In this document: positions 19,108 through 63,616 of the stretch, piece after piece
How the letters are laid out: every line of letters begins with the position of its first letter
How positions within the stretch are numbered: position 1 is the first letter of the stretch
Assembly (NCBI GenBank): GCA_002633005.1
Contig: NMRA01000686.1
Coordinates: 124,001 to 188,000 of the forward strand
Length of the DNA stretch: 64,000 nt
Direction of reading: 5' to 3'
From: Phoronis australis
Taxonomy: Eukaryota; Animalia; Phoronida
Notes under the pieces: generated by a model
Databases searched by the model: none
The model's input: the letters and a program-made list of their open reading frames with translations, nothing else
What the model was told of the DNA's origin: nothing
Made by a program: the position numbers and the translations under genes

Positions 19108-19151
19108 CTGAAAAAATACATACATATACATGCACTTTAATTCAATAACAA

Positions 19152-20803: not shown

Positions 20804-22067
20804 GATCCATTTTCTGAACACAAGAGACGTGGAAAAATTTTCGAGAAACAACATGAAATTTGGATCAGCAACCTCTGAGTACTCCTGGTAGTCACCTAGG
20901 CTATCGGCAAATCCGATGGCAAAATAGTCAGCCACAAACTTGACTTCAAAATGAGCTATGCGCTCAAATAGTGGCTTCCGGACGATCGTTAACATAGGCC
21001 TGAACGGGGTAACCTTCAAACTTCAAGAGACGTGGAAAAATTTTCACCATTGGCGCTGTTATTTGGCGGTAACATGTCTTAACATACACTCTATGTGACA
21101 GGCTATCGGCAAATTGTGTAGTTATCTCCCCTTGCTTATAAATTCCTGATTTTTGCCTGCTCTTGTGTATTTCTTATGGAGGGCTGCTGGCAAGATTTAG
21201 CGCATGCGCAGTAGTGCATGTTACAAATTTCTGGCGTTGACCCCTTCAGCAGCGCCTGGAAGCAGCTGCCTTTATCTGGCACCCACTTGCTACGCCACTG
21301 ATCGCGTGTGAGTCAAGAAAAGCCAATTTCAACCAATATACTAACCAGGACACAAAGCCACTGACAGCATCACTCAAGCTATAATGGACTATTCCTTGAA
21401 TCAAGGGGTCAAAGGGTGTGATCAAAAGGCTAACACTAAATATGGGGCTTGACATGGTGTAATCGACGTTGCGAATACACAACGTACACAAAGGCACCTA
21501 GATAGGCAGGCAGTTTTATGACTCTTAGTCGAACAACGCAAAACACCTAGTGGAGCCTCCACGACAAAAAATCGTTCCTAACTCAAAATGCTCGGTTACC
21601 GAAAGAAAGTAAATAGCGACTTCAATTAACAAAACGAAGGCGGTTGCATAATGCTGACTGACTGTATCCAAACGTTCCGGAGGTAGACTTTATACACCGC
21701 TTTCAAAACAGTGGAGTTCGGTCTCAAAACTACGCCCCTCGTGACGTTGGAAAATTTCCAGCTCAAGCCATTTTGACCGTACGAGGTCATTGTAAGAGTA
21801 TATGGATCAGTAATAAAAATTGGTTTCATAACACGACCTGCGACTGGATCTCAATGATGTACATGCCGTAATTTATCTAATCACCCATCTTCACAAATCG
21901 TGCACAGTCGCTTGTGATGTAATGACAGACACATTGTGACTTTAGCACCTGAGGTCAAACATTCAAACTTAGATCAACAAATTCAACATAAAACAAGTAA
22001 AGGACGTGGAACTGAACATGTCACAAGGATGGAGGAAAGACTTCTTTGAGACAATTTGGATCCTCAC

Positions 22068-22124
22068 CTTTTTTAATTCTTCCTCACCGAGAAGAATTCC
22101 TCCGGATTGTGTGCTCTCAGCCAT
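22068..22124 (-). CDS. Gene A (paralogue) exon 1 (MAESTQSGGILLGEEELKK)
   Basis: acaacATGG start and AAG|gtgagg donor. Homologous to 63560-63616. Confidence 0.8.
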
Positions 22125-26960: not shown

Positions 26961-27272
26961 CTACTTGGGGCGTCCTCCGGGGAAGATATGTTGACACAAG
27001 TTGGCGTCATGCTGATGAATAAAGTCATAGATGCACTCTACTCTGACTCCTTGCTCAACGGTATTCAGATGGAATTGACCTTGTGGCAACACTATATTAT
27101 GTCCACTCGTGTGCATGACAGCCAAACACGCCTCCTGTTGGTCGTCAGCTACAAACCCTGGGCTTCCTGAGCTGCCGGGTCCGAACCTTGAGCTAGATTG
27201 GTAAAGCACTCGACGTCTGTCAGCTAATGTGTTGTACGTTTCGTTGTTAGATTGTGTGTAAAGTTGAAGAAG
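26961..27272 (-). CDS. Gene B exon 12, protease C-terminal part with catalytic Ser (..LYQSSSRFGPGSSGSPGF..LAVMHTSG..VEQGVRVECI..) and stop
   Basis: attgcag| acceptor in phase 0, TAG at 26961. GxSGSP + MHxxG + ExG..I pattern as in FAM111 proteases; Ser codon at 27168-27170. Confidence 0.9.
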   Translation of the reverse strand, partial: LLQLYTQSNNETYNTLADRRRVLYQSSSRFGPGSSGSPGFVADDQQEACLAVMHTSGHNIVLPQGQFHLNTVEQGVRVECIYDFIHQHDANLCQHIFPGGRPK

Positions 27273-30200
27273 CTGCAATTGTAATAAGCTGAATCAAAAA
27301 AACGGTGTCTTATACTAATGAATAGTTACTGCCACCCATCCATTGCCACGTTATGAACACACTAGCTCATGCACTGATATACAAGCTGTACCCGTCTCGT
27401 GTCAAACTTTTCTAAAACCTACTTACTGGTATGAAAACTGGTCTCAAATGGATTCCTACTCAAATTTGAAGTGATTTTGGACTTATATGAGTTAATTATT
27501 TAATGTCACTTCCAAAGCGCAAATCACGTGAATTTGAGCTTACCCAATACACAGCACTTATCGATACAACTGGACTTATACCTCACATAAAATGGGCAGT
27601 CCTGTCAAGTCATCGTGTTGTGAGCTTAGGGAATTAAATTGCAGGCACTTAAAACAAAAATTTGTCTAAAGTTTGTTTCACTGAAGAAAGACGTCGTAAG
27701 TTTGTATGTTTTTGTCTTAATTTTGACTAATTTACCGGATGTCGAAGTCCCGAAGTTGAGAAAAATCTTAGACTTAAGGGAGAAAGGAACTTGAGTCGTT
27801 TTCTTGGAAGGGGTCGTCTGGCTGGTTGTATGAAACAGTCTGAAATAGGGACTCAACTAAGGTCCCTAAGTCTTTTTGCGTATTTGTGTCTCTATGGATA
27901 ATACATGTATAACTAAAATCTGAGCCCAGAGTCCTTTGAAAATAAATAGGGACTCGGCCCTTTACTTGGAGGTGTTGCTTGAAAAGATCCCCAATTATTT
28001 TTGATACTGACAATTCAGCGTAGAGTTTACTCTGGATTTGCAGCGAAAGTTGACTTAGTAATGAAACTTAAACAATTTAAGAAAAAGTAATAGGTATTTT
28101 CACAAGTCCAACATTACCCAGTAGATTTGGGGAGCATAGTTGAGTCCCCATTTGGTACTGTTTCAAGCTACAGGGTGCTGGTCTCTAACAAGCTCAGTTC
28201 TTGGTGAGATCCTAACAGTGTGAGAGGTAATAACCGGATGAACGGGTCTAAGTCAGAACTTGATATTCACAGTTTATCAAAGAAACTTTATACAGGGTTT
28301 TGTTTTGTAAATGTGTTGCCCTCGTTTATAAGTGCACTGTGGGCTTTAATACTTTATATTTCACAGATACTGTAGTTGTGTTAGACATCGGTAGTTTGCT
28401 GCACGACTTAAAAACAAGTGCAACACATTTTGTTTGACCAAATAATAGAGTGACGTAACGTGTACCTGTGCTCTATGCATGTCGGATAAGTGCTCAATTT
28501 TACATTGAGTATCCAAAACCTTCTCGTGGCCGTCAGGATGGCCCGCAAAGTGCAGGTATTGCTGTCCCACGATAACTTTAAAACTAGTCAGTGGTGTCGG
28601 CAGCGAATGATGGTCTAGCCTCTGACACTGATTGAAGGCTGCCGGAAGTGTAGCGTTGAAATCTAGATCCACGATAGCCACGTCGAGGTCATCGTCACAA
28701 GCTAAGACTGAGAGGATGGGCGCTGCTTGGACTGAGCTCATACATTGCATTAGTGCCTTGTTAAAGTGAAAGAGAACAGCGTTGCTTCCAACTGAAACAG
28801 AGAGACAAAATACATGTAAATGATAAAGTGATCTGTAGAAATCGGGAGCCACACAGTGGCGCTACATGTGCATGTAATGGCCATCTCGGTGACAAAAGTA
28901 ATTTTCTGAATATAGTAGCGCAAAATCGAATCCACCAGCTCCGCGGAGCAGCCTAACGCTCTACTGCAAGGCGAAATTCCGCACGTTTACTAGCTGTAAA
29001 AATAGATTATAGAGTATTTAAATGGTAAAGATACCCGCTGATTTCTGCCAATGTCTTGCAGACAACAGCGAGAATTGGCAAATCGTAAGGTCAAAAACAA
29101 ATCAAAGGATGTTGTTTTTTTATAGCTATGATCCAAATTAATAACTTCAAGGTATCAATCCAACCCAACAACAATCCTAAGGAGGCCGTCGTAGAACCGG
29201 CAATGAGGTGATTTACAAATCAAATCCAACTTGAATCGTTCAGTTAGTCCATATTTTTGCAAAATATAAAAAGCTATGAGTGTAGGGATATTCAAACTAG
29301 ACGACTGCAGTCTTGAAGTAATTTTTAAGTCCACTTCATCAGAGGTGATGTGGAGCCGGGAACTACATGGCACTGGTTGAAATGTTTGGTTTGAAGGGTC
29401 ATCTGGAGGTGACGATCACTACAAAAATTATATATACTCGAACAGTCGATACTCCGAAAGGCAGTTATATCATACCAATTCTGTGCGGTACAGGCCAAGT
29501 AGTCTTACCTTTACTGGTTTTGAGTATGATCTAATTTTAAAGTATAGAACTTGAAGGATAATAGAGAGATTAAACTGCCACACCCAACCGCACATGGACC
29601 CATGCTAGGATGTCACCAGGGAATGACGTAACAAGAGGAATTAACGCAGCGTTCAATTTCAAGCCGTGTTTTCGGTCACCATTTTCTAATTGAGGTCACG
29701 TGATGTTCTGATGCTGGCATGATACTGTTCTTTGGCCAAAATAGGGATGGTGGGTGGGATCGCACAGAACTCAGACATTATTTATTCAGATCGGCCAACG
29801 AGTGACCTCAGATCTTAGGAGCTTTCGTTGGAATGAGGAATCAAGATTAAAGAATCAAGAATTAAGAATCTTTATTTAACGTCGTTCAAAGAACATATTG
29901 ATGTTAGCCGGTAGGGCTAATTCTACGACATTAACTTTAACAGAAATATGAAGAAAATAGGACTTAATTTAAAGATGGATAATAACACATAGATACAGGT
30001 GTGAATAAAAGTGAAGTTGCCATAATCGCTAAAGTCTAGTCTAGGAAATGAGGTAGTAATTCCTAAACTTTATTTTTTTGTGTTTAACGTTAGGATTATG
30101 CCTTTAAATTTCCAGTTAGCCTGGGATAGAACACTTAGCGAGTTATTGCTAGTAAACTTGTATTATAAAAATACATTTCGTCAGCTTTGGGGCCTCCTTG

Positions 30201-33200
30201 AAGTAACAGTAAGCATGTTGTAAACAGCGCCCGAGGCAGTTTAAGTTTTGTAATGGAAAGTTAGAAGTCAATGTTTGTAAACAAAGTTCGACATGCGTTG
30301 CGTTTTGTAAAACTACCGATAACTAACGCAGGAAGTTATTTTAATGACACAGTTTGTAAGAATGAGCGCCTTTTTACAAATAGACTTGTACTCAATGCAT
30401 TTTGTTTCAAGGGTGATAATACATGTATATGTAAAACGCAACATATTTTTGCCAAAATTGACCCCGTGTAGGGTAAACACGGCAACGAAACTGGACGGTA
30501 CTATGGGAACCCAACTATGAAGTGTGAGGCAAAATCACCAGAATGAAATTATGTCCACTAGAAAACATTTTTTCCAATTCGGAAACTTGATTTGAAAACC
30601 TAGCCTGTTGAAGACCAATCATTTTCATGTTCAACTAAATGATTTTGTGAAGTGCCCACTTGGGAAACCCCGTTCCAGAAGAGAGAGTCTCCGACTAGAT
30701 GACGTGGATGTGGTACGAGGTCGCAGTGCGTATTCAGAGTTCGGATAGGGGGCTAAAGAAAGTTAGAAGGGGCTGCATTTAATAACATAAATGTACTAAA
30801 AATGGTGCCATTTGGCGTGGTAACCCTCAGTCCGAATCACCAACCCTTTCCCGTTCAACTTGCTAAAAACTCAGTTTTGTCTTTCTTACAATTTATTGAC
30901 TCTAGATCCGCCTCTGCAGCAAATACCGAGGCAAAGCAGACAGACTTTATATTTACACAGCTGGTCACAACAACATGTTTCGGTGTTCACAGCACATATC
31001 ATCGCGATAGATGTCGATGTTGACGTAATATAGGGTGACAATATGTGTCCAGTTCAACAACGTGGCTTCTGCTTGTCGCAAAGCTCAGCACTTCCAAGTC
31101 AAATAATTCACAAATCTATGTACATGTAGTAGGCTCCACCGAATTTTCCTTACATGATTGAGGAAACAGTCAATCCTGCATTGACCAGGTCGTCATAATT
31201 ATTTGTCACTTAGAAAAATGACATTGCTCCCAGAACGATACGCAAAATCAGATAGTGAAAATAAGACAACGGGGGCATAAACTACGCAACGCCTTAAATT
31301 CTGAAGAGTTTATGAAAAACAACGTTTTCAAGAGGTCTGTGTTGATTCTCCGACACATACATCTGTACATGTACAGTTAACATGTACATGGACATGTAGC
31401 AGCAGTATCATCAAGGTAGGAATTGTGAATGACAATGGTACTGGATACCTGTATGCCACTGCATATCATGCGTGCACCCAGGGGGGGGACTCGGGAGTTC
31501 GAACGAGCCCCTCCCCCAATTTGGCGAAGTGGGCAAAAAGGTCCGCCTCAGAAAAACAAAAACTCCGAAAAAAGAGGCAAAAGTCCATTGAAAACACGCA
31601 GACGCTCAATTTACAATTTCCAAGGTAGTACCCTCATTTTTTGTTTAGTCCTACCGATATTTTGTCGGCAAAAGGTCCGCACCGACAGAAATTCGAGCCA
31701 TCCCACATTGAAGGCTGGGTGCGTGCATGCATACACAGAAAAGTGGACTTCAAACCGAGATTTCAAGTGGCGAGCTGATTTAACCGGCATCAGCTTGTAC
31801 TTACGCGGGACACTGAGCTCTTTTACAACGTGGCAATTTGTCATAACGTAGGTTGGACCAACGCGGAACCCAGATCCCAATCCATATCCATCCGACCTTG
31901 CAAGTAGAACGACAGACGGGAGCGCACGTGCTAAAGACTCGTGTAAGTGCGCCAACATCACCTTCTTATTAACATCATGGAACAGTGTGGTAGAGGCTGT
32001 GGGCGGTGGAGGAGGCTGTATGAGTGGAAAGTAATCTGAAACACATACACCTAATGCATGTTACAATAGTGTACTCGACAAGGAACAAAAGTGACACTTT
32101 CAAGATTTCCATTGAAACAGGCAATTGGCTATCAACTTAAATTCCTCCTTGGAATTAATCATTTACCCGACAGCCTTGTATTCACACCCAATATGTCCAA
32201 TATGCCGTCGTTTCTCCTCTTTACTTTTAGGTTGACGTCTGCTTCTCCGTCGGGGATAAATTTGCCTTCAGATTTGGTAAATTCTTCGAGTACTGCACCA
32301 AACTGCTCCTCAACCGGAGGAGCACACGCTCCTAAAGTTTGGTCGGATGCACGTTCAGTAGCTCCTCTGGCCCCACGCAATCGAACTTCAATTGTATGCC
32401 CGTGCTTTTTTTCCAGTTTCGTTATATCTCTTTGAAGTTCCATTTGCTTCTGAAAATGACATTGGAATATCTTTTAATCCCAGTGGCTGTTCAGGATAAC
32501 TTTCTAACACACTAAAAATCAACAACGAGCCATCTTGCGTCATGAAATTTTCCTTCGTAAATTTAAAGACGGGATTTTGAAGAACTGAGAGTTTGTTATC
32601 GCTTTAGATCCGGCTCAACATGCTGGTTTATATCGACGTGTCACTTTAAGCGCCGAACGTGGTCTCTTCAAACAGCATATATTCACAATTATGCAGAACG
32701 AGGTTCACATCAAAAGTTCGCCTCTTGTGCTAAGTATGCTCAAGTGGACCATTTGACTGCAGGTGGCTCGAGATCGTATTACAGCTAGTGTGGCCTGATA
32801 ATTACACCATAGTAACAAGTATATGTATATGGACCATTGTTATTTGTTGAGTACCTTAAGGATAGTTTTCGTTTTCTTGACCTCATCTTTGTCTGCATAA
32901 CCGTATATACCGCAAACGTCCAGGGCTGTTTTATTTTCCTGTAAATATAGAAATGCACGAATCTATGATGGACTATTGCGAACACCAAGAGGCGAAAGGG
33001 AAAGAAAACTGGTTGTTGAATCGTATTTAACGAGACACAATAAGAACAAAAACGACAATAGTATGTTGAACATATAGGATCTGACGAACGAAGTTTATGT
33101 TTCGAAATAATTTGAAGGTGTGCTTCACAATGACGTGGAGATAAATTTGCAATCTTAAGTTCATCACTTGTTTACGCAGAGTCTAAGAACTTCCCCATCA

Positions 33201-36200
33201 CTGAAATAACATGACCACAATCCGCTTTGCAAAACATTTTCTGAACTCATCCTTTTAGACGATCAGCCAGTTTTCTTTTGTTTTACACTTAAGTTGTATG
33301 CTTATCTGAGACCAGGATCATTATGCTCATGGGCATTAGACTGAATGTGCGCAATTTCACGTGGTTAAGAATCCGCCAGCGCGCTAAAGAAGGCGTCTAA
33401 TTTTATCGGGTGTCGACAATTGAAAGGCTCGAAATCAGATAACCATGCAGGACAAAGTTGAAATCATCTCAGACAAGTCATTGTTCTTATTTACGTGTAG
33501 GTTTCAGGAAGTTTCTTTAAGTGGTTACGAAATATAATGAGAATTGGACTTGTAAGATGGATTGGATATTTGTCACCTACAGTAGCTAGTTAAGGTGACA
33601 CCTTAAGAAGCCAGCATGGGAACAGAGTTTAGACAACATCAAAAGACAAACGAGTTCCCACGTGACCTGAGTTCCCGCCACTAGGAGTTTATACCGACAC
33701 ATCGGAGGAGACGCGAGGTCTCCCAGGTACTAGTCATATTGTAAATATCCAGTCTAGAACATAAGTCTGTTTCTGAGTTGCTCAAGCTCTGCATTGTATT
33801 AATAGGTAAGAAGAGAGATATCCTATTATAGATTAATCCATTTTAAAACATCAGTCCACGGAATTACACAACCACGACACTATGTAGTCGACACGTGTAT
33901 TTGAGGTGTACTATTAACTCCAAGGAACATTCACAACAAAATATGAATAAAGACATGGCTGTATAATTTCATTTGATCTTTAAACACGAAATTATTAGAT
34001 CGTACATGTAACCTGCGTTGATACCGTGCGTACTTGAACGGTCGATTGCCGACAATAACTAAAGAATACGTTACATCAAATCTTAACGAACTGTTGTTGA
34101 TTTTAACACATGCGATCATCTACATGTATGGATCGTTTTATTTAACACAGGTAATTTCTAATAACTTACTGAAAATTAGACCATTTTTGTCAAAACATAG
34201 CTTTCTACGCATGGCTGATGTAACCAAAGACACTGAGAGCTTGCTCGTTTTGAAATAATCTGGTGTAGACGGCAGGCGCATACCAAAAATGTAAGTGCCA
34301 CAAAAACTTTTAAGTTTTGGAAGATGAGCCTATGAAAGTTGAAATGGTATACCGTAATTTTTAATTCAAAACACATCCGAGAAAACCATTTTGCCTGGAA
34401 CTTAGAACCTATTGAATTTACGGGCTCTTCTTTTTCTGAGTTGTTGTAAGTTTGTGGGAATTTGAAGTGTACATGTACAATATTTGAGATCTACTTCGGA
34501 CAAAATACTGTAAACCAATTGACCAGTCTGGTACAGGACACCAACTCTTGTCAATAAAAATATGAGCACTTCCAACATGTATCGTTGTTAACTGAGCACT
34601 CCTTGCACGGGGGAGAAAGGCAAGCAAACATTGATATTGAAACTTCAAGACAAATGTCAAAATGTGTCTTCGGAACATCATACATTGTACTGTACGCAGG
34701 CTACCTCTGAAGTGGATTCATACAAAAAAGGTCTGATGATATTTTATGCCCTCTTATAGTAAACGCCGTTTGCGTTGGTTTTAAAATGTTCCATTTTTGT
34801 ACGAGGAGCTACCTATTTTACAGTAGCATAAGGAATACCCTGATATCATAACGTTTAGTGACCTAAGTCCAACGACAATCTTGTGAAGGAAGGTGGGTTT
34901 AATGCCGCTCTATTATCGGGGTTGGATCAAACTGGCGTGATTACTTCAGCAGGACATGAATCAGAAATGTTTAATTCCTGTGCTAGTGTGATCCACTTAA
35001 AGGTGGCTGAGACATAAGCAGGGTGTAATTCTTGTTCCACCCTACCAAAAATGAAACTTATAAAACAAATTACTCTATGACACAAGCGATGTCCTCAACC
35101 TAATCAGGTCTTTCACTCAAATAAAATTGGTCTCAAAGTATTTCTTACAACAGTAGGATTCTATTTCCGTTACCAAAAAGAACGCAATGACCAAAAATCA
35201 ACTCAAAGAAATGACCCAGTGTTCATTGAGGTTTGCAATCTCTAAAATTGCATTATCTGAACTGGCGCTTGTACGCATGGCGTTTGACTTAGAGAGTTCC
35301 AACCATGACCGTAAATCTCAAAAGCAATTTTATTCGTACATCTTAAGAGATTTAATGCCTTTAGTATGCCTGTTGTAAACAAACAAGCCAAAAGTTTTAT
35401 TTTTTTTTCTGTAACCGGGGTTGTACGTAACTCGTGGGAAGACCGACTCCGCCGTTGTCGTGTAGGCCAGTGCGATTTTGAGGAGTTGCGAGGAAAGTCC
35501 GCGGAGAGCCGCCCTTTTCAGAAAAGAAATGTTGGAGGCCGTACTAACAGCAACTTGACTGAGAAAGTCTCAAATTTCCGAAACACGTGAAACTTGCATA
35601 GAAATGGCATCAGTTTGAGCGGCCGCCGGTACGAGAGTGTAGAACGTCGTTAGGCACATGTTTTGACCACTCACAAAAACGACGTTACGATAAACTACTT
35701 GCCGCCTTTTAAGTGTATTTGCAATTTTATAGATAACGAACACACTGTTTCCATTCTGGGGCGAGTGAGGCCAGGCCCTCGATCCCAGGGGTCCAGACCG
35801 TTTGCTACGGCACGTAGGCTTATGCATTGTGTATAACGTGCTTATTAGATCATTGCCGTGACCCAGGTTTACTGTGCCCTTTGTCAGTAATTTTAAGGAT
35901 CTATTTCGCGAATATTGACCACCCCTTGCCTCAGTTGGTTGTGGCTTGCATGTGTCTGCAGTATTTCTCGTGGAAGTTGGTGGAGTTCATTAAGGCCTGA
36001 AAATCGGGAAATCGACTTCACAAGTTCATTGTATGATTCTTCAAGTACTTGAGTGTGAGGTCCATAGCCTGTCTGTATAACCGTTGTCCAGTTCTCAATC
36101 AAAATCGTCCTCGTATTCTGATCTGATTTGTTCCGCCATTGAAATTGATTGTCAAGTGACCAATAGTCTTCCAACCATTACACCATTTGGCGGGAAACTT

Positions 36201-39200: not shown

Positions 39201-42200
39201 CTTCTTAAACGAGGTGAGAAAATTATATGTGCCCGTTGTCGACCATTTATGGAGAGGTTGGTATGTCTTTAGTTTGTGCCAAAATATTACAGACAAGAGG
39301 CTTTGATTTACTGAGTGTTCTAGTGAAGGTACATGCAGTGAAGAAGTGGCTCTTTGTTTGACTCCAGGCAAGAAGCAGGTCATTTTCGATGATATATTTG
39401 TTATAAATGAATAATTCCACGAACTCAATGTTCGTTTAAAACACATTTAATGCAGTCTCAACTAAACAACGAGTAGAACACTCTTGCGATACCTTGTTGA
39501 CGGTATTGACGTCGCATCCGCTTTCCCTGCACAGTAGTTTCACTACCTCTGTACGTCCACGTTCAGATGCGTTGTGCAGCGGTGTGTCACCCGACTACAG
39601 TAAGTGAACAAAAATAGATAATGTTGATCAGCATTATACAGTAGTGATGTGGGTGGGTGAACAGGTCGCCAACTTAAAGACTTTTTAAGTTCAAAACTTC
39701 ACCATCACTTGTCATACTTATGAAGTGAGTGACTCAAAATGACGAGAGTAAAAACTGACCTTTAAACTCAGACATAATCTGCCCCGGAATTTTTAAAGGT
39801 CAGTCTGATTAGATGTTATCCGATTGAAAAGAGTACTATTCTAAAATATGACATCAGGATTTTATATATAACAACAGAGTGACATTCATGCATATAGTGA
39901 GTGCTGTGGAAATACAAGAACCAAGTCACCGTGCAAGTCTCAGTGAACTGATTGTACAGAGCGACGGTTTTTTAATTATTTAAAGTCGCGTGCACGTCAC
40001 GTCACGTGCGGTGGAATGCAAGGAAAAATGTCAAAGTTTGCAACTAAATCATAATGGTGATTTATTAATGAAATCACCGAAAGGTTCAATCTAGTCGCGC
40101 GTTGTGTGTTCAACTAAACAACCTGTGTGTCATTACTTACCAACATATCACGTACATCTACACTGGCCTTGTGGGCCAACATCACCTTCACTGTTTCTGT
40201 ATGACCACCCTCTGCTGCCATGTGCAGCGGTGTCACGCCCATCTATGTAATACATAATGGAGATGTGTGAATGGACGATCAACGTTTAGAGCTAATTAAC
40301 ATACACAGGGGAAAGTGAACTTATAAGGTGACATAATGAAACATTACTGACCCCTCTAAGACGCTACAATACTTGTAATGATTTCAAGAACCAAGCGTTA
40401 CAGATTTTAAAACGTTACAGAACATGTTACAACTCTACGCAGCTTTGGTTCTTCACCAATCAAAAGCAGACGACATATAACTTGTCATTGTTTTAGGACA
40501 ATAAATTGTGAAAAATATCAACAAAATTTGTTCCTAAACAGTTTTAATCATCGTGTGTGTAAACAACTAGTTCAACTAAACAACCTGTGTGTCATTACTT
40601 ACCACATCACGTACATCTACACTGGCCTTGTTGGCCAACATCGCCTTCACTACGTCTGTATGACCACACTCTGCTGCCCTGTGCAGCGGTGTCCGGCCCT
40701 CCTATGTAATAAATAATGGAGATGTGTGAATGGACGATCAACGTTTAGAGCTAATTAACATACACGGGGGAAAGTGAACTTGTAAGGTGACACAAATGAA
40801 ACATAAGTGACCCCTCTAAGACGCTACAATACTTGTAATGATTTTAAGAATCAAGTGTTAAAGATTTTAAAACGTTACAGAACATGTTACAACTCTACGC
40901 AGCTTTGGTTCTTCACCAATCAAAAGCAGATGACATTTAATATGATATTGTTTTAAGGACATTAAATTGTAGAAATATCAACAAAATTTGTTCCTAAACA
41001 GTTTTAGCCATCTTTATGTGAAACAACTAGTTCAACTAAACAACCTGTGTGTCATTACTTACCACATAATCACGTACATCTACACTGGCCTTGTTGGCCA
41101 ACAATACCTTCACTGTGTCTGTATGACCCCACAGTGCTGCCATGTGCAGCGGTGTCCCGCCCAACTATGTAATATATAATGGAGATGTGTGAATGGAAGA
41201 TCAACGTTTAGAGCTAATTAACATACAAGGGGGAAAGTGAACTTGTAAGATGACATAAATGAAACATTACTGACCCCTCTAAGACGCTACAATACTTGTA
41301 ATGATTTCAAGAAGCAAGTGTTGCAGATTTTAAAACGTTGCTGTAACAACAGAACATGTTGTAGACGTCGACTGCAAGAAATTACAGAGTTCCTCCATAA
41401 CTTGACAGCGATCCCGCCATGTTGTATTTCTTCACTGGTTTAATTGCTTCGTGTTTAATATAAAGTTGTAATGTTGAATGGACGATTGTCATTAAGAATA
41501 GAAAAGTGGACGTTATTAAAGTCGCTAAATGTGTTGGTGACATGATTCAAACTTCAGTTTCTTAAGATGATTGTGCCCCTGCAAGTTGAAAAATACATGT
41601 CAAAATATTGAGAAACAAAACGTGCATTTACAAACAAAATATTTAGTTGAACTTCAAAGTCTACAGCTTTTGTAATAAAGATAACATTGTCTTAATTCTA
41701 ATGTCGTCTCAAGTAGTTTCTATTACCTCGTCTCGCACGTCTACATCGGCCCCACCCTGCACCAGCACCCTCACCAACTCCGTCCTGCCCTCCTCCGTTG
41801 CTATGTGAAGTGCTGTCTGGCCCTGCAGAAACAATGAACAATTTATAGCAAACTTCACAATCATTAACTTCACTGTGAATCTTAATTACTCATCATGCAA
41901 ACGTTCAAATAACTCATTTCCACACAAAATTACCAAATCTACTCTATGTTTACCTGTTAATTAACAGTCGTGGTTGGAATATATCATCGTGTCAGTGTCA
42001 ATAGTAATTCTTTCAGTGTAGACATGAGATATTCCTTAAAAGTATGCAACATTTATGAAATTACGCACACCTGGTTGTAGCTAACACGAGCTATCACTGT
42101 TATTGGAGAAAACCTGTCCTTGATATTCGCACTAATAATCACCTCTAAGAGCACAATGTCATGAGAATAAAATGTTCAATCCCATTTTTGTTTTTAGGGG

Positions 42201-51200: not shown

Positions 51201-54200
51201 TTATATCTGAACCTGAATGGTGGAGTTATTCTCATAATTATAGACGTCTATGCATTGTATTGGCCGATGAACTGTCACTTGATCGCACCATCGAGTCTCT
51301 GGCAGTAAAATCAATTTCTAATCAACCTACGGAAACATGTATCGCATCTTCGTTGCATGTTTTCAAATCGTTTGCATACACCTACTTTGACTATTATGAC
51401 GTAATCTACTAAGCAGAACTTCATGTAAGCAGATGGTGTAGGACCTTAACTTTGTTTGACACGAACAGAATACAGTACCAGGCTGCAGTAAACATTACCG
51501 GGCGGTGTCACGAAAGGATCGAACACAATCGAAAGTCTTTAATGGTCCAAGTTGTCATTGTGTTGAAAGCCGCATTCAAGTGTTAACACATCAAGTTCTC
51601 AACAAATTAAAAAATATACCCAAAAAAAAGTTCGAAAATCATCTATTACAAAAACCTAGATGTGGGTATAATTCAACAGCATTAGAATCTCGCCAGGACC
51701 TTTGCGAGATTCTGTACGCCTGTGATCTGATAAATATCTTCTTTAATGTTCCCCTGTTGTTCATGTTAATTCGATTCCCGAACTTAATTTTACATATTGC
51801 AATTGCCCAATCTAGAGAATTGGAAATGACATACCTTATTCAGCATATTAATTTCGACGGTGCGTGAGAGGGAAAAACTAAAAATTTGCGGTGACGTGAC
51901 AAAGAATTTCCCGTATAAGAGTACGATTACTTTTACTACATACGACAAAAGCATACAAAAAATTAACATTGTGAACAAGTTGCGTAAATAATACATTTCA
52001 AATTGTGATGTTCAATCACGACTTCACAACTGCTTCTTGGACCCCGTGGTTAACAAAAATTGATAGCCGTAGTACTAGAACGTCAAAAAATTGATAACCT
52101 CCATTCATTAAAATAACGCCAAAGAGCAACCAGTGGTACCAAAATAAATAAAGAACGTCACTATAACATCTATAGATGAAATAATAATAATTGTCTTTTG
52201 TGCGACTTATTTGTTTGAATGTCAACGGCTTAAGTAAATGTTGAAAACCTGGTACATGTACTTTTGTATTCAATTTAAGTATAATTATTATAATCGAGTA
52301 ATTTGCAAAACTCCTGCAAAATCAAATGACCATCTGATTTAGCAAACGCTAAAACACACGCCTAAAAACCAGTTGCGGATTTAAGGGGGGGGGGGCAAGG
52401 GAGTCATGAGCCCCCTAAAATTCTCCCAGGTACCATGAACAAACCCCGTTTTCGGCTAAATCACAATCAAGGTCCATATTCGAGAGTTGACAGTGTTACG
52501 GTCTAAAATAATTTTTTTGGTCACTTACCAAATGCCAATTAAATCTGATATGCAAATAGTTATTCAGTTGTGCAAATTAAAAAAAGAATCATCAAAATCG
52601 GACAATGTTTGAGAAACTTATGCATGTTTTTGTCTATGAATTTCTTGCATTTTTAGCGTTACGAGTGGCCATTTTAAAAATAACAAATTTCAACTGACAC
52701 CAGTAGTAAATAAATTTATTTTATCAAGCAAGCAAATGCTTGGATATGGCTGGGAACAACTTGGGTCACTTTCAAGGTTAATTAGATGAAGTTGTTCTTA
52801 ATCACTGAGAAATGGTAGGGTTCATCGTAAAACTGGAACTCGTTACAAAATTTGTAAATTCTGTGTTTCTAACCCTCACCTACTGTAAAGAAGGTTAAAA
52901 ACTAAAGTTCACACCCTGTAATGAAAAGAACTGCAAAATATGTCAGCCTAAGCAACACAGCAAACTATTCACTATCTAAACAAACCAAAAGTTTGGATAT
53001 TGACTGGGTTCTGCTATGTTGAAAATGGGCCAAAAGGGCTAACAAAATGTAGTGTACGTACCCCCTAGTGGAATTCAGTAACACAAATGGACATTGCAAA
53101 TGAAATTATTGCCCTTTAAATAAGAACATAGTGCTTATTATCACCAAAGAAAAATAAATGTCCATACAACATTATGTTACCATGTGATGCAGAAACAGTG
53201 ATGTAGTGTACGTACCCCCTTTTGTAGTGTACGTATCCCCATATTTACAAATGCCATGAAATTAAAATAACACTCGGTAAGTTAGCAACATTGTTCATAG
53301 ACAGTTTCCTTCCTTAAAAGTATTAGGTTAAAAGAGTGTTTATTGCCAATGCATTTGTTTTGAGTGAAATATTAGCGGTTGTGTAGTGTACGTACCTCCA
53401 TATTTTAATTTGTGCCTATTTTCAAAGTATGGCAGATATGCCTATGAATGTTGTGCTTTTATTGTTTCTCTTTGAATTGATTTAGTAAATCAACTAACTC
53501 TCAGTCGATTCTTAATATTTAGTTACAAACCTGACATGTCATTGAAATGCAGTGTACGTACTCCTGTGTAATGTGCGTACCTTCAACCTCTGTGCTATAA
53601 ACTATTGCTCATTAGAGGTTTTACATACTGCTGTTCTCATGAACAATACTGATATTTCCAAAATGAATACAGTCTGACAAAAAAAACAATGGACATTATC
53701 AAATTTGTAGACAATAAAATGCCACAAAGGACTTGGCTAGTACTCAAAATCCTAGAAGACACGTCATGTGATAACTGATACTGCAGAGGCAGGTTCTCTA
53801 TCTCCCAAGACAACTTTAACTTGCAATAAGCCAACAAGTAGAGGAGGCACAAAACTCAAGACCATTCCATACAGTTGTAACTTAGTCAAAATTTGACGCT
53901 GATTGACTTTTCGTAGTGTACGTCACCCATCAACCAGTAACATTTTTACTGTTTACAAGTGGAACACTGGCACTAGCATTGCTTAAAACTATTTAAACCA
54001 ACTAGTGAATTTATTGAAAACTAGGCAAATAGCACCAATAAAGTTTTTGAAAAAAGTAGTTACTTGTCATTTTCTTTTTGTAAGTATCATATTGCAAGAG
54101 AAGAAGTTATCATTATACTGTGTTAAGATAAGCAATGTAATGATCATCTAGAACAACTGGATCAGCACGGTAACGGCTTTTCTTACCTTACTATGTGACA

Positions 54201-57200
54201 CTTCTTCAAATTGATCAAGAACTTATTAAATTAACAGCTACCTTATGAGTTTTTGCATGATAGAAGTGTGCTGTGACCACAAGTTGTAGTGTACGTACCC
54301 TTTTATACAGATGTGATGCATTAGGCCATAAAACTTTATTCGGTGGTTCTTGTGCAAATATATTTTAGATTGCAAACCTGGAATGATGGTACTTTATAAT
54401 AACCTAGCTTTTATAGTTATATGACAACCTTAAGTTTTCACCAAAAGTGGCCACCGAATAAGGACCTTGATTGTGATTTGCCCGTTACCGTTTTTTGTAA
54501 TAAGGTCTACAAACCCCAAGATTCGAGACCCCTGCATCCCTACATTTTAGGCTGGGCGCTCTCGTGGCAATATTCTGGTTATTCCTGTGCCTTGGCCCCT
54601 CCTAACTCAAAATCCTGGATCTGCCCCTGACAACAGTGTCTCGGAATCACAAAATCACAACATGGTCATCTACTAAACTCCAAGCACTTGCGGCTAACAG
54701 CACTTCGGGTAAAATAGCTTAGATTCTGGTCTGTATTTCTCGAAATATGAAGTCCTACACCGTATTCTAGTAGTGCACCTTCACTCAAAAGTCATGTAAT
54801 ATAACCTAAATTGACGCTTTGACACCACCAACGGTCCAGTAACTGAAGTCGAAAGGGGCTGTGACTGTGACCAAAAATGGAACACTTGGCTTTGGAAATG
54901 CATATAAGTCAAAAGAAGCGGCATTAATCCCTTTCATCATGGCAAAACAGTTTTCTTTGTGGACATGTCGATTACTAATACGAAATTGACCTCGGTCAAA
55001 AAAGGTAATTTCATAGTATTTTAAAAAATGTATGCAGTTCCAATTTCATTCTGAAGAAATGACTGCGCCTCACTATTATTAATCATCCACTAAGTCCATT
55101 CCCCTAAGCAAAATCCGAAGTAATTGTACAACAGCTACGTGGATGCTTTGCAAAAGTGCACACCTGCTTGACAAAGACAACTCCTTCATTCACTTAACTT
55201 TACCTAAATGTTTGACCGAAATTCTCGTGAGCTCTGTTAGCAAAGATAAAAATGGTTAACAGTTACAGTGCAGATATCAAATAGATTCGACCTATAAGGC
55301 AACACTTGTACAGAAACTTTCTTTTAAAGGTGCACTTCAAGCCCGTGATGACGAAAATAGTGTTCATGAGTGAATACTTACTAAAAGATTATTCAGTTGC
55401 TGGTTTACGTCCCATCCGCTCTTTAAATACTTCTCCAGAGTAGTACAATCACCATTCCACGCGGCTCTTTCAACCTGAAAATATTAATAAGTAAATATGG
55501 ATTATACATGACACAGCGTATGTGCACTATAATTATGGAGTCAACTTTACAAGCCGGGAGCTCTTTAGATGATATGAAAATTCCAAATACATGATTTTCT
55601 ATTTAACATTTTGCTTCTACTAGCTAAACAGTACGTTTACAAAGAGAGATGTCACAAAAGTATACCTAATTTTCTCAAGTTCGATAAAAAAACTTATGAA
55701 TACTATAATGCTGAAAAATTAAATGCACATAAAAACCTTGTAGATGACAGATTCTCTGCAAAATGGGAAAAATTTATTGTTCATGTTAACTTCATGTAGA
55801 AGATACTTACTTTAAACGAGATATGAGAATGGTCTTCCTGAGGTGTGCATGCGTGTACTTATTTGTTTTGTTTTGTTTGTTTTTGTAATTGTTTGTAAAC
55901 GATAATAAATACATAAAAACATGGAAAAAAATTCCAAAAGGGTCGGGTTGCCGCTGGGTTTTGATAATTGAAACAACGTGAACACGATCAATGTATTTGG
56001 TAGACTTCTTCCTCCAGAGAATCCTTCGTGATTGGACCATTTTATTGTCATTTTCATTTCAATGTATTATGTTTAATTTCAGTTTCCCCACAAGATGCCA
56101 ACTGGGGTTGGTATCCTGCCCTCTCAAACAATGTTTGGATAGGTACATGTAGTTGGCCCTTAGGTATATCTAGAGGACATTTATCCATTTAGGCCCAGTC
56201 TCGAGTTGGAATACATTGACTCATGCATTGTCCAGGTGCATCTCCTAGTGTCTTTGTCCGTTGAGGTTACGGTTCCTTTAGGTATTCAAGGTTTTGGTGG
56301 CATCATCTTGAGAATGTGCGGAAACGAGGATGTTAAGTGGGTGGGAAGGACGAAACAGATGCGTTTCAGAAATCATCTTTTATCGATGCCTACGGTACGC
56401 ATTTCACACTAGCCAAAACATTAGATTGGTCTGGAATATGGCTGTGTGCAGTCACCGACTAGAATCTTGATTCAGGCAACATGACAATTTTTATGTGTTT
56501 GCACTGCATTATTCTAGAATCTGAACGTTAATCATAAAAAGGACTGTGATGCGCGAGAATTAAATCAGTGCAAGATAAGCGCAAATAATTGCAATTGTGC
56601 CAATGTTATATTTACCCCCCCCCCTCTTTCTCACGCTCACCTGTTCCGTGTTCTCATAACCCCTATTTAGGGAACTTTGGCGCACACAATCACTTTTATA
56701 TTTGGTTGTTTGTACTTCATTCTAGCCCGGATTAACCCTATCCAATATTACATGTTTCTTTAGTATTATTTTTTTGTATTGCTACATATCATTTCCATGA
56801 TCAACTATCGTTATTGAATAATAGCATTTACCAAACTTGCCTAGTATTCTTGTACAGCGAACCAACTGGAGTTGATATAACGTGCTACTATGAACGACAT
56901 TAGTGATGCACCGTATTTGAATCATGTCCAAATTTCTCGGTCAAACTAACAATCGCTGGATACACGACGAATAAATTCGTCAGTGGCCTTGTGTTCGTGT
57001 AGTGAATTGCCTCTTATTCGCACACAGAACTTGTCGGGACAAAGAATATGAACTTGACACTATAAAAATGCTCAGGGTGGAAAACCTGATATTGTACACG
57101 TAGTTTATTGTTGGATTTGAAAAGAACTTTTAGTAGTGTATATATTGTTCATTGACGTGGGCTCAATACGCGAACTTGCTTATGGTTCGCGCCGGCATCA

Positions 57201-60200
57201 TTTTAATACCGCACATCACAGCTAAAAGGCATCTGCTGCATCACTTTTACAAAGTATGTTTTCGTCTATTAAAAAAAACTATTGATTATGCATATATGAA
57301 AAAACAAACCTGTTATAACTTTAAGTATCTTTGCTTTGAATATAAGCATGTATAGTCAAGTGGCCGAAAGTCACATATTTGACATTTTAACCCATAGCAT
57401 TAGCCGTCAAACTTTTGTTTTCTGTGCACGTGACCAGAGAATAACCTTTTGGACAGCTCCTCTGGCATGTGACACGGTTATAAAACGGCCGCACAGAGAC
57501 CTCTACGGCATGAATTAATATAAAATTTCACCCAATGAGGGATTGTCTTCTTAGCAATAATTTCTTAAAATGACTTTGAATACCTGTGAAATTTATCAAC
57601 TATCGGGCAAATCACAGTCAAGATCCATATTCCGTTGCCACTTTTGGTGAAAAAATGAATTTTGACACATGACTGTAAAAGCTGGATTATTTTAAAGTAA
57701 CATCATTCGAGGTTAGTGATCTAAATATTTTCGCACAAGAACCACCGGATAAAAGTCATGGCCTTATGCATCACGGTTGTATAAAAAGGTTCCGTACACT
57801 ACAACTTGTGGGCACTGCCCACTTCTATCATGCAAAAATTCATAAGATAGATGTTAATTTAATAAGTTCTTCGTCAAATCGTTGAAGTATGACATACTAA
57901 AGTAAGAAAAGTTATTACCTTACTGATCAAGTTGCTCTATATGATGATATATTGCATATCTTGTCACAGTATAACAATAACCTCCTCTCTTGCAATATGA
58001 TTCTTACAAAAAGAAAATGACCAGTAACTCCTTTTTTCGAAAACTATATTGGTGCTATTTGCCTAGTTTTCAATACATTCACCAGCTGGTCAAAATAGTT
58101 AAAGCAATGCTAGGCCCAGTGTTCCAATTGTAAACAGTAAAAAATGGTACAGCTTGGGGGGTACGTACACTGCGCATAATCAATCAAAATCAAATTTGAC
58201 TAAGTTAAAAGTCTAAAGGATGCATGGTCTCGAGTTTTGTGCTGCCACTGGTAGGTTTGTTGTAAGTTGTCATGAGAGATAGAAAACCTGCCTCTGCAAA
58301 TTTAGATGTCACATGACGTGTCTTCTAGGATGTTATTAGCCAAGTCCTTTGTGGCATTTTATTGCCCACAAATTTTATCATACGCATTGTTTTTTTTGTC
58401 AGACTGGATGCATTTTCGAAATATCAGTATTGTTCATGAGAACAGCAGTATGTAAAAATACTTGTGAGAAATACTTTATAGGTCGAAGGTACGTAAACTG
58501 CACAGGGGTACGTACCCTACACTTCAATGACTTCTCAGGTTTATAAAAAATATTTAGAATGTACTGAAAGTTAGTTCATTTACCAAATGTAGTCAAAGGG
58601 AACAAATAAAAAGTACAGCAAGCATATGCATATCTGTATGTCATTCTCTGAAAAAGCCACAAGTTAAAATATAGGGTTAGGTACACAAAATGCTAATAAT
58701 TCACTCAAAACAAATGTATGTGCAATTAACACCCATTTAACCTAGCATTTTAATGGAGAAAACTGTATGTGTCAAATGTTGCTTACTTATCGCGTAGTAT
58801 TTTTGTTTCATGGTATTTGTTCACATCGGGGTACGTACACTACACAGGGGTACGTACATTACATTACAATGACATGTCAGATGCGTAACTGAATATCAAG
58901 AATCTCCTGAAAGTTAGTTGATTTAATAAATCAATTCAAAGAGAGAACAAATAAAAACCACAGCATTCATGTGCATATCTGCCATACTTTAAAAATAGGC
59001 ACAAATTGAAATACATGTATAGGGTACGTACTATACACAAATACTAAAATTTCACTCAAAACAAATGTATTTGCAACAAACACCCTTTTAACGTAACAGC
59101 TTTAAGGAAGGAAACTGCCTATGATATGTTGCTAACTTACCAATTGATATTTTAATTTCATGGCATTTGTATACATGGGGGTACGTACACTACAAAAGGG
59201 AGTGATAATAAGCACCTTGTTGTTATTTAAAAAGCAATAAGTTCATTTGCAGCAAATTCTTACTTAGTAAAATATATTTCTTTTCTAAATTTGACAGTTG
59301 AAACTTGTAATTTTTAAAATGGCCACTCATTAAGCTAAAAATGCGTAGAATTTATAGACAAAAACATGCATAAATTTCTCAAACGTTGTCTGGTTTTGAT
59401 GGTTCTTTTTTAACATGCACAACTAAATAATACTTTGCATGTGAGAATATGGACCTTGACTGTCATTTAGCCGTATGTTGAAAATGCATCACGACCCCCC
59501 CCCCCATAAACATCGCAATATAATCCTCGTGTCTCCTAATTTTGGCAAAATTGCTTCGAGAGAAAAAATGCTGAACGAGTCAGTGAGGTTTTTGAGTCTA
59601 ATGAAGTCATGTTATTTATAAGCAGCAGTTTGCACAAACTACGATTTAAAGTACTGGTTCAACAGGTTTCACAACCCCACGCACCCGGAGAACAATGGTC
59701 TTCACTCACCGGGCAACACAGTCTAAAATAAAGAATTAATGAGGAAGTCCTCATCATAATAACATTGGTATGAATGACAGGGTTCCCGTCAGTGACCACC
59801 ACAACAGGCTCAGCTACAAACGAGAAAGCCAAACAATCATTTCCCGTCCAATGAATACTAGAACAATGTTGGTGTGCAAAACGACTGGACTCGTATGACA
59901 AGAGAGAAATGATTCAACGCAAATCATTTTACAACCAAAAAAACACCTCTAATATTCGTGTATCCTAATTGTCCTCGTCATCTTGTCACGTGTTCCTCCC
60001 CAAATAAAGCTTCAATATTTCTTTACAGTCCGGTGTAAGGGAAGAAAGCATGACAAATAAATGAACAACAGTAAGAAAGAAGAATACAGTGAACATCACT
60101 GACTCTTCACTAAGCAGATAATATCCTTCTGAACCAGTAAAACATCAATACCCGGTATTACATTTTTGATAGTTTAATCCGATGATTTCTTTCGTTCACG

Positions 60201-63200: not shown

Positions 63201-63616
63201 GCTCCGCCCCTCGTTTGCTGTGACGCTGGAAAATTCCCAGCTCACGCCATATTTTGTGACTGCACAAGGCCATTGCAAGGGTAAATGGGGGACTAATTTA
63301 AAACTGTTGTTTTTTAATGTGACCCGAGTTTGGATCTCAAACTGTACATGCTGTAATATCTAATCAAAATATCTTTACAAATTCATAAAACTTAGGTTGT
63401 GATGTTATAATTATAATGTCAGCTAGACCGGTTGTGAATATAGCGCCTAGGCGGATTAAACAATCAAATTTCGATAAACATATTCAGCATAAAACAAATA
63501 AAAGACGAGGACCCAAACATGTTTCAAGGACGACGAAATGAGGGAGTTTAGACTCTCACCTCTAGCAGTTCTTCCCTACTGAGACGAACGCCGCCTGATT
63601 TTTTGCTCTCAGCCAT
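26961..63616 (-). CDS. Gene B: spliced ankyrin-repeat + FAM111-like trypsin-fold serine protease, 12 coding exons, 628 aa; join(63560-63616, 55382-55474, 41727-41822, 41063-41164, 40603-40701, 40141-40242, 39493-39594, 32855-32938, 32167-32449, 31805-32035, 28466-28791, 26961-27272)
   Basis: All 11 introns are GT..AG with compatible phases (0 for introns 1-8, then 1, 1, 0). The spliced length is 1887 nt with no internal stop. Ankyrin TPLH/TALH motifs are in exons 3-8, and the protease motifs GSGFRVG..VMTNCHVV, DDDLDVAIVDL, HFAGHPDG and GSSGSPG..VMHTSG are in exons 10-12. Confidence 0.85.
28466..28791 (-). CDS. Gene B exon 11, protease middle with catalytic Asp (..DDDLDVAIVDL..HFAGHPDGHEKVLDTQC..)
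   Basis: ctgtttcag| and CAG|gtacac, 326 nt, phase 1-0. Matches the FAM111-type LDxA..L and GHPxG..K..D..C pattern; Asp codon at 28682-28684. Confidence 0.9.
29860..30270 (-). mobile_element. 3' end of an L2/Crack-like LINE
   Basis: Short tandem tail and AATAAA on the minus strand, a 3' stem-loop, and a degraded 'LKLPR...GPK' C-terminal remnant. Confidence 0.4.
31467..31729. mobile_element. GC-ended MITE in intron 10 of gene B
   Basis: TIR CATGCGTGCACCCAG ... CTGGGTGCGTGCATG with a G-run and C-run interior. Confidence 0.65.
31805..32035 (-). CDS. Gene B exon 10, protease N-terminal part with catalytic His (..SVVLLARSDGYGLGSGFRVGPTYVMTNCHVVK..)
   Basis: gtttcag| and C|gtaagt, 231 nt, phase 1-1. 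GSGF..TNxHV is the trypsin-like (PA clan) His motif; His codon at 31830-31832. Confidence 0.9.
32167..32449 (-). CDS. Gene B exon 9, linker (KQMELQRDITKLEKKHGHTIEVRLRGARG...VNTRLS)
   Basis: cattttcag| and G|gtaaat, 283 nt, phase 0-1. Coincides with ORF 32159..32443. Confidence 0.82.
32855..32938 (-). CDS. Gene B exon 8, ankyrin C-cap (ENKTALDVCGIYGYADKDEVKKTKTILK)
   Basis: atttacag| acceptor, AAG|gtactc donor, phase 0-0. 'TALD' is the typical terminal ANK motif, and this exon bridges the ankyrin block to the protease block in frame. Confidence 0.8.
39493..39594 (-). CDS. Gene B exon 7, ankyrin repeat (SGDTPLHNASERGRTEVVKLLCRESGCDVNTVNK)
   Basis: ctgtag| and AAG|gtatcg, 102 nt, phase 0-0, TPLH motif. 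Confidence 0.9.
40141..40242 (-). CDS. Gene B exon 6, ankyrin repeat (MGVTPLHMAAEGGHTETVKVMLAHKASVDVRDML)
   Basis: tacatag| and |gtaagt, 102 nt, phase 0-0. Confidence 0.92.
40603..40701 (-). CDS. Gene B exon 5, ankyrin repeat (EGRTPLHRAAECGHTDVVKAMLANKASVDVRDV)
   Basis: tacatag| and |gtaagt, 99 nt, phase 0-0. Confidence 0.92.
41063..41164 (-). CDS. Gene B exon 4, ankyrin repeat (LGGTPLHMAALWGHTDTVKVLLANKASVDVRDYV)
   Basis: tacatag| and |gtaagt, 102 nt, phase 0-0, TPLH motif. Confidence 0.92.
41727..41822 (-). CDS. Gene B exon 3, ankyrin repeat (GQTALHIATEEGRTELVRVLVQGGADVDVRDE)
   Basis: ttctgcag| and |gtaata, 96 nt, canonical ANK consensus. Paralogue at 5414-5509. Confidence 0.92.
42904..43068. 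repeat. Two-copy 96-bp tandem duplication
   Basis: GAAGAGTTGCCTTCAAAATGCAGCACTT..CAGTTTTCACGTGTA.ACGCGAT is repeated at 43000. Confidence 0.8.
43941..44853 (-). mobile_element. 5'-truncated Crack/CR1-clade LINE (RT C-terminus, 3' UTR, (TAAA)n tail), recent and B-specific
   Basis: FKYLGLTLDPNLKFNMHID..LYHSIIQPHIDYCLPVWG..QDRAARAI..GKRSFIYAAAVMWNS, a terminal GAGGG..CCCTC stem, and an empty site in copy A at ~6705. Confidence 0.92.
48908..49039. mobile_element. Small MITE
   Basis: TAGGGGCGGATCCA ... TAAATCTGCCACTA ends. Confidence 0.6.
51090..51560 (+). mobile_element. Old CR1-like LINE relic (paralogous copy)
   Basis: Homologous to 16950-17400. Confidence 0.55.
52370..54629. mobile_element. 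GC-ended MITE split by the 52453-54484 insertion
   Basis: CAGTTGCGGATTTAAGG ... CCTGGATCTGCCCCTG ends; empty site in copy A at ~18125. Confidence 0.6.
52453..54484 (+). mobile_element. Non-autonomous TIR transposon (family copy 2)
   Basis: TIR CGGCTAAATCACAATCAAGGTCCATATTC / GAATAAGGACCTTGATTGTGATTTGCCCG, homology to 14770-16912, and repeated GTAGTGTACGTACCCC. Confidence 0.88.
55382..55474 (-). CDS. Gene B exon 2, ankyrin N-cap (VERAAWNGDCTTLEKYLKSGWDVNQQLNNLL)
   Basis: ttttcag| acceptor, |gtaagt donor, phase 0-0, AAxxG..L..G.DVN pattern. Paralogous to 19018-19107. Confidence 0.85.
55500..55920 (+). mobile_element. 3' end of an L1/Tx1-clade LINE
   Basis: LLLLAKQYVYKERC..P.F..F..Y.AEK..F.AKWEKF followed by a T-rich 3' UTR and AATAAA. 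Confidence 0.7.
57604..59473 (-). mobile_element. Non-autonomous TIR transposon (family copy 3, inverted)
   Basis: TIR CGGGCAAATCACAGTCAAGATCCATATTC / GAATATGGACCTTGACTGTCATTTAGCCG, perfect TAT target duplication, and GGGGTACGTACACTAC motifs. Confidence 0.88.
60150..60720 (-). mobile_element. Degraded, internally deleted L1/Tx1 LINE fragments
   Basis: SCGSSYSRGVC..D..G (endonuclease 'SNSRGVAIL' motif) and KWTNTQYTYLGII (RT 'YLGI' motif). Confidence 0.55.
63560..63616 (-). CDS. Gene B exon 1 (MAESKKSGGVRLSREELLE)
   Basis: ATG GCT start and GAG|GTGAGA donor. Same length (57 nt) as, and homologous to, 22068-22124 in gene A. Confidence 0.8.

Follow-up and report, generated by a model that had tools for sequence, protein, structure and literature searches.

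A Phoronis australis gene joining ankyrin repeats to a FAM111-like protease: a candidate innate-immune sensor-protease

The closest described relatives of the gene reported here are the FAM111 proteases. FAM111A cuts after Phe, cleaves itself at F334, needs dimerisation through its alpha-1 helix (V347, V351) and is more active as an isolated protease than at full length (PMC10920703), and its protease is the means by which it restricts a poxvirus, vaccinia (PMC10469034). PMC9798293 treats two matters as open, namely what directs FAM111 proteases to their targets and keeps them in check, and whether they began as antiviral proteins. Here we describe a gene (gene A) on the minus strand of a 64,000-nucleotide stretch of Phoronis australis DNA (contig NMRA01000686.1, positions 124,001 to 188,000, forward strand; referred to as the window), in which an array of ankyrin (ANK) repeats precedes a FAM111-like protease domain, together with a tandem paralogue (gene B) that lies beside it. 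Such a fusion is less surprising because marine invertebrates often carry ANK fusions peculiar to one lineage (PMC8195603).

The window reads as AT-rich (GC 34-44%), intron-rich, repeat-bearing animal DNA, and a six-frame motif scan places all nine of its ANK-bearing segments, along with its single GSSGSP motif, on the minus strand. Gene A was rebuilt from the window in the form given by the original prediction, with 12 exons (Table 1), 11/11 introns bounded by GT-AG and compatible intron phases (0 eight times, then 1, 1 and 0), which splice into one open reading frame of 1887 nt and 628 aa with one terminal stop. The domain order also proposed there, of an N-cap, five ANK repeats, a C-cap, a linker of ~95 aa and a trypsin-fold protease with H408, D453 and S560, is borne out by Pfam Ank matches to each of exons 3-7 (E 2e-9 to 3e-10; exons were scanned singly, 11/12 of them), every repeat being encoded by one phase-0 exon. 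Trypsin_2, the other domain expected, appears only as a weak match to exon 10 (E 0.0017, below the cut-off), and exons 2 and 8 (the caps) and 9 (the linker) have no Pfam match in this single-exon scan; to the eye, exons 2 and 8 resemble ankyrin caps. The ANK array, the 95-aa linker and the protease account for all 628 residues, with no kinase-RNase module and no STAND NTPase among them. By a hydropathy proxy, which is not SignalP, the N-terminus is not hydrophobic (best 11-residue value -0.05), in agreement with the predicted lack of a signal peptide, and there is no strong transmembrane stretch (best 19-residue value 1.45); we infer an intracellular protein, cytosolic or nuclear. The long introns of gene A were examined for additional ANK exons and the window, by profile, for a second protease copy, and neither was found; no poly(A) hexamer occurs in the 960 nt past the stop.

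Gene A is a real, expressed gene. Four RNA runs were compared with it, X1 as a set of contigs and X2-X4 as stranded raw reads, 18-19% of each of the latter being read, and the joints compared are E2-E3 through E11-E12, with 15 of 86 joint rows given for E7-E8 onward. RNA over the exons and all joint reads imply a minus-strand transcript. The two splices flanking exon 8, which had been singled out in the original prediction (39493/32938 and 32855/32449), were both found. The first, E7-E8, has exact support from one X1 contig and, in X4, from 11 reads with 9 starts; an in-frame variant form of it is found in another X1 contig and in 21 X4 reads with 14 starts. The second, E8-E9, occurs in all four runs, as an X1 contig and 17, 2 and 22 reads in the three read runs. 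Further downstream the corresponding read counts are 51, 39 and 12 for E9-E10, where X1 is in a shifted register, 10, 10 and 28 for E10-E11 and 12, 12 and 16 for E11-E12, the last two joints each with an X1 contig. Upstream, E2-E3 is represented by an X1 contig and 5 variant X3 reads, and for E3-E4, E4-E5, E5-E6 and E6-E7 the exact joints are absent from the joint rows listed, which hold in-frame variant joints of near-identical exons. This chain of joints points to one mRNA for the ANK and protease parts, a reading also supported by the position of exon 8, the C-cap, which the 6.5-kb intron separates from the other ANK exons and leaves with the protease exons.

The kinship of the protease domain emerges from several searches. 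Exon 12 compared with 1.84 billion representative proteins gave 3 matches at E <=0.001, of which the sole genuine one is an amphioxus protein (P0003; E 1e-4) that in turn matches the human FAM111A structures 8s9k and 8s9l (E 3e-14 to 5e-14, with all else at E >=0.39); the others, P0001 and P0002, were set aside as artefacts of repeats, both being long repetitive proteins (HYR, Giardia VSP). NAL1 structures do not figure among the 60 of 84 rows listed from the structure comparison. Two further searches returned 27 distinct proteins, comprising 26 FAM111-like proteins (several named FAM111A-like) and one bacterial protein. A FAM111-like profile made from 24 of the 27, without gene A, two P0003 isoforms or the bacterial protein (P0030), scores gene A at 101-105 bits (E 2e-33, aa 358-623, 271/292 positions). 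On the same profile 200 shuffled protease regions reach <=2.5 bits and DegP/Q/S 6-14 bits, and gene A scores 5 bits on an HtrA profile built from DegP/Q/S, in keeping with the predicted affinity to FAM111 rather than HtrA. The HtrA/Deg architecture is likewise not seen, as the chain stops 5 residues past the FAM111-like match and has no C-terminal PDZ. In a tree of 29 rows, with three HtrA outgroups and no mammalian rows, gene A groups with the amphioxus FAM111-like proteins (support 94/83) on a long branch beside the long bacterial row P0030, so that its exact placement is unsure.

An N-terminal profile of the 24 homologues fails on gene A (E 0.18, no UBL, that is ubiquitin-like, match), and a PIP-box pattern has no match there; with ANK repeats found in that place instead, the proposal that an ANK array replaces the UBL/PIP N-terminus gains support. 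Judged on its sequence, the gene A protease is a FAM111-like domain and, by architecture, not a FAM111A orthologue. Other searches added no relatives: a word-based search with exon 12 for longer proteins gave 36 candidates, none significant, single exons against PDB sequences gave nothing significant, and scans of metagenome and viral contigs with exon 12 gave 334 and 2 pattern matches, respectively, and no relative. Two side observations concern the wider family. P0030, a Streptomyces protein that combines a trypsin with an AAA/STAND-type part, reaches 46 bits on the FAM111-like profile, far more than HtrA does, a hint that FAM111 has close relatives among the trypsins of bacterial conflict systems; and P0018 and P0022-P0029, from metagenome contigs of up to 400 kb, form a clade of unnamed FAM111-like proteins with support 99/99.

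Several of the residues expected of a FAM111-type enzyme can be placed in gene A. H408, D453 and S560 align to the family profile with an H-to-S spacing of 152 (family range 135-174), and the His and Glu that line the S1 pocket are retained as H579 and E598. F358 lies 22 residues before the beta-1 anchor, the same spacing as F334 of FAM111A (deduced from structure comparison and PMC10920703), and F or Y stands at -21 or -22 from this anchor in 23/23 anchorable homologues, one of the 24 being unanchorable. F358 is preceded by a Pro-rich spacer, and the site is likely to be exposed. By analogy with FAM111A, the protease would have a chymotrypsin-like preference (P1 Phe), low activity at full length, a need for the alpha-1 dimer and self-cleavage after F358. 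The original prediction had supposed that ligand binding could unmask the protease; if the comparison holds, FAM111A biochemistry favours dimerisation and autocleavage at least as much as simple steric masking.

The linker encoded by exon 9 has no Pfam or Atlas match, its model has a predicted local distance difference test (pLDDT) score of 48, and the best fold among 48,161 chains reaches Z 4.9 (none Z >=5). A TRADD-N-like assignment was considered and set aside, the second helix and the conserved small-Ser motif not being evident. An amphipathic helix is found at aa 237-257, and it is speculation that it adds a second dimer contact.

The ANK array is where gene A appears most changeable. Within the duplicated cassette that carries exons 4-6 (Table 1), intron 4 and intron 5 show a 6% difference, and among the three exons the bases of the binding face, which we take to be positions 3, 5, 13, 14 and 33 of the ANK repeat, the set used in designed ankyrin repeat proteins (DARPins), vary at 8/15 sites vs 8/78 elsewhere (Fisher p 4e-4). 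The proportion of replacement differences (pN) between cassette exons is 0.12-0.16 and that of silent differences (pS) 0-0.07, with 16 replacement changes and 1 silent by hand count, and the face is more diverged than the upstream intron in three pairs (p 0.044, 0.049 and 0.0025). Hairpin length also differs by one codon between repeats. The RNA carries further variation: 14 joints with extra letters all keep the frame (11 by direct check, the other 3 with a one-base offset at the acceptor), the variant joints between ANK exons alter hairpin-tip residues, repeat a cassette or reorder cassettes, and both the order of the repeats and the residues at their tips differ in RNA of other individuals. 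Sequence variants in the RNA were taken from 40 of 1009 variant rows, 9 intronic rows (35259-36164) being dropped and 31 classed. Among these 31, the protease exons have 7 replacement and 6 silent variants (expected ~3.4:1), none at the triad, and the linker 9 replacement and 3 silent. The protease variants lean silent, and the enzyme thus looks constrained and the front end free or driven. Collectively this suggests diversification of the ANK face, a feature absent from the original prediction.

The explanation that we favour, and regard as evenly poised, is that gene A encodes an innate-immune sensor-protease, whose variable ANK face binds a foreign (e.g. viral) protein and switches on the FAM111-like protease. 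The chain would reside in the cytosol or nucleus, little active at rest, until the ANK face bound its foreign target; binding would cluster copies of the protein and allow their protease domains to dimerise, and the dimerised proteases would cut Phe/Tyr sites in the bound target or in nearby host proteins and free themselves by self-cleavage at F358. The outcome would be the destruction of the invader's protein or the death of the infected cell. As a more tentative extension, possible but doubtful, gene A may belong to a programmable-protease family of marine invertebrates in which duplication and reordering of ANK cassettes, together with mutation of the repeat tips, yield a repertoire of natural DARPin-like binders, each on a self-releasing FAM111-type protease.

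Several points weigh against the sensor-protease explanation. The 16:1 ratio gives a modest p of 0.056 (falling to 0.019 on the assumption that chance would make 30% of changes silent), the three face-vs-intron pairs are non-independent and their signal is modest, and the face is the most variable part of any ANK array. Most joints with reordered repeats rest on one X1 contig each, and these contigs may represent alleles or paralogues. Neither X2 nor X3 has an E7-E8 read in the 15 of 86 joint rows listed, no single read or contig spans from the ANK part to the protease, and gene A sits on a long tree branch (2.16). Finally, the position of V347 on the dimer face of FAM111A is occupied by His371, where 22/23 homologues have a hydrophobic residue, and therefore alpha-1 dimerisation may fail to hold. 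In the ungapped alignment the V351 position is Ala375, and a one-residue register shift puts Leu370 at V347; His371 may thus signify a weakened dimer that needs outside help, or a mere alignment shift.

Among the other explanations the one that survives best, although we consider it unlikely, is that there is no switch: the FAM111-like protease would be active all the time, and the ANK array would only bring it to its substrates, foreign or host. The UBL/ssDNA-binding and PIP regions of FAM111A serve to target it (PMC10551639, PMC9798293), FAM111A at full length forms an active dimer, and diversification of the face fits substrate choice equally well; however, unrestrained FAM111A is cytotoxic and its N-terminus lowers its activity, and the conserved F358 suggests a release step.

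Rather improbable, in our judgement, is a non-immune role in replication stress, development or protein turnover, with the ANK array binding a conserved host partner and the repeat variation being neutral turnover in a very polymorphic genome. FAM111A does act in DNA replication, reads and assembly disagree at hundreds of positions, introns included, and the selection tests are borderline, yet gene A has no PIP or UBL, replacement changes exceed silent ones in the cassette, and a tandem paralogue together with repeat-order variants is typical of lineage-specific immune expansions (PMC8195603).

It seems quite improbable that the two parts were joined recently by chance, or by read-through between adjacent genes, and that selection has never acted on a shared function. 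It could explain why the E7-E8 joint is missing from the rows listed for 2/4 runs, why the ANK exons are more deeply covered by RNA than exons 8-9 and why no homologue with the same architecture turned up, but the solenoid is completed by the C-cap exon beyond the 6.5-kb intron, the model gives exons 8-12 no separate start exon, and both sequence variants of the E7-E8 joint are in frame. Least probable of all is a bait or guard, with the protease as a decoy for pathogen inhibitors or the linker as bait for pathogen proteases and the ANK array signalling onward, for although viral FAM111A inhibitors exist (SPI-1, SV40 LT; PMC11847056, PMC13640560), the linker variants number 9 replacement to 3 silent and the protease domain is fast evolving, the triad and S1 residues are intact, the protease-exon variants lean silent (7:6) and the chain has no signalling domain.

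Gene B shares the exon plan of gene A. Its introns show 65-77% similarity to their counterparts in gene A, and its ANK faces are different. It leaves the window at its edge, so its protease part lies outside. Its ANK exon at 232-135 is 98 nt long, one base short in a G run, and is either a broken copy or an assembly slip, and its intron 1 holds a 141-N assembly gap (20663-20803). The surrounding DNA also holds repeats of other kinds. Intron 2 of gene A contains a fragment of a reverse transcriptase frame of long interspersed nuclear element (LINE) type at 44398-44868 (-), its family assigned by eye, over which reads fall on both strands, and a 1.3-1.6-kb element occurs in inverted copies inside long introns (57601-59203 vs 53198-54487). 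A 128-bp near-perfect palindrome lies at 18537-18664 and a 1.1-kb tandem duplication with GATGAC-rich repeats at 12463-14712.

Table 1. Features of the ANK-protease gene (gene A) and its tandem paralogue (gene B), in window positions.
Feature	Position	Strand	Remarks
Gene A, exon 1, start ATG, aa 1-19	63560..63616	-	In-frame stop 11 codons upstream; 11/19 identical to paralogue exon
Gene A, exon 2, ankyrin N-cap-like, aa 20-50	55382..55474	-	RNA joint to exon 3; paralogue 15/30 identical
Gene A, exon 3, ANK repeat 1, aa 51-82	41727..41822	-	Pfam Ank E 1.4e-9
Gene A, tandem exon-plus-intron cassette, ~460 bp, three copies (exons 4-6)	40108..41360	-	Self-BLAST 90% identity, introns included
Gene A, exon 4, ANK repeat 2 (cassette copy), aa 83-116	41063..41164	-	Pfam Ank E 9e-10; cassette ~90% identical to neighbours
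Gene A, exon 5, ANK repeat 3 (cassette copy), aa 117-149	40603..40701	-	Pfam Ank E 2.5e-10
Gene A, exon 6, ANK repeat 4 (cassette copy), aa 150-183	40141..40242	-	Pfam Ank E 3e-9
Gene A, exon 7, ANK repeat 5, aa 184-217	39493..39594	-	Pfam Ank E 2e-9; RNA splice to exon 8
Gene A, exon 8, ankyrin C-cap-like, aa 218-245	32855..32938	-	RNA joints on both sides; no Pfam match
Gene A, exon 9, linker, aa 246-340	32167..32449	-	Amphipathic helix, then beta-alpha-beta-beta in a poor model
Gene A, exon 10, Pro-rich spacer, F358 (predicted autocleavage P1), alpha-1 helix, H408	31805..32035	-	Profile and motif alignment
Gene A, exon 11, D453 and GHP motif	28466..28791	-	Atlas trypsin-like lead 0.91
Gene A, exon 12, S560, S1-pocket H579 and E598, stop	26961..27272	-	Motifs, profile, homologue search
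Gene B, tandem paralogue, same exon plan	1..22124	-	Exons 22124-22068, 19107-19018, 5509-5414, 4848-4750, 4440-4342, 232-135

To see what gene A could contribute, it helps to return to how FAM111 proteases are aimed. With the UBL/PIP head swapped for a diversifying ANK array and the autocleavage Phe kept, gene A would be a direct test case separating targeting from catalysis, and the swap predicts that the FAM111-like protease is a portable immune effector. The sensor-protease explanation would add a one-chain class to animal innate immunity and provide a natural template for targeted proteases. A programmable-protease family, if it exists, would give animals an equivalent of the sensor-protease defence of bacteria and would show that the ancient job of FAM111 was anti-pathogen. 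If the variation is neutral, gene A adds another case to the lineage-specific domain shuffling of marine invertebrates.

As regards precedent, the original prediction knew of no characterisation of this architecture, and the literature search likewise found no description of an ANK-FAM111 fusion, although the FAM111 sequence network of PMC9798293 could include some that went unremarked. PMC9798293 describes UBL-less FAM111-like proteins in amphioxus and soft coral; 'ankyrin' is absent from the accessible text of that paper and of PMC10551639, and 'FAM111' from that of PMC8195603 and PMC12642450. A survey of the homologues agrees as far as it goes, with ANK repeats in 0/26 FAM111-like matches, but the searches were insensitive, also missing human FAM111A, so this blank is weak and absence elsewhere is not established. 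What is new here beyond the original prediction is the set of recent cassette duplicates with face-clustered changes, the repeat-order variants in RNA and the tandem paralogue.

Human FAM111A and FAM111B (8s9k, 8s9l) share with gene A an intracellular trypsin fold with His-Asp-Ser, GHP and GxSGSP, the His and Glu lining S1, the alpha-1 helix and, at the distance of the autocleavage site, a Phe. Gene A differs from them in carrying an ANK solenoid and a linker of no assigned fold in place of PIP and two UBLs (PIP being confined to mammalian FAM111A), in having His at the dimer-face V347 position and in an identity of only ~22-29% even to the nearest family members. Nearest in a 29-sequence set are amphioxus FAM111-like proteins (e.g. 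XP_035698175.1, P0003), with BLAST identities of 27-30% over ~250-280 aa (E 1e-12 to 3e-22); ANK repeats are absent from all of these, and their N-terminal profile is the one that fails on gene A. RNase L resembles gene A in that ANK repeats were added to an existing enzyme, with ligand on the ANK repeats leading to activation by dimerisation (PMC10400998), and it offers a model of how gene A could operate, but it has kinase and RNase domains and one fixed small ligand, as opposed to a varying face. The bacterial Avs, MBL-protease and Pepco modules likewise place a trypsin-like protease on diverse sensors and gate it by infection (PMC12642450), whereas gene A is a spliced animal gene with no STAND NTPase and no linked effector gene seen.

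Set against receptors with diversifying repeats, gene A has the repeat-per-exon layout and a clustering of changes on the face (p 4e-4), and the excess of replacement over silent substitution rates (dN over dS) is borderline. Brown-algal LRR-ROCO genes, and likewise fungal NLR repeat arrays, resemble gene A in that each exon encodes a single repeat, such exons are duplicated and shuffled, and the face of the repeats is under diversifying selection (PMC11378527 for the brown-algal genes). Gene A differs from this group in having ANK in place of LRR and a protease in place of a GTPase/NTPase.

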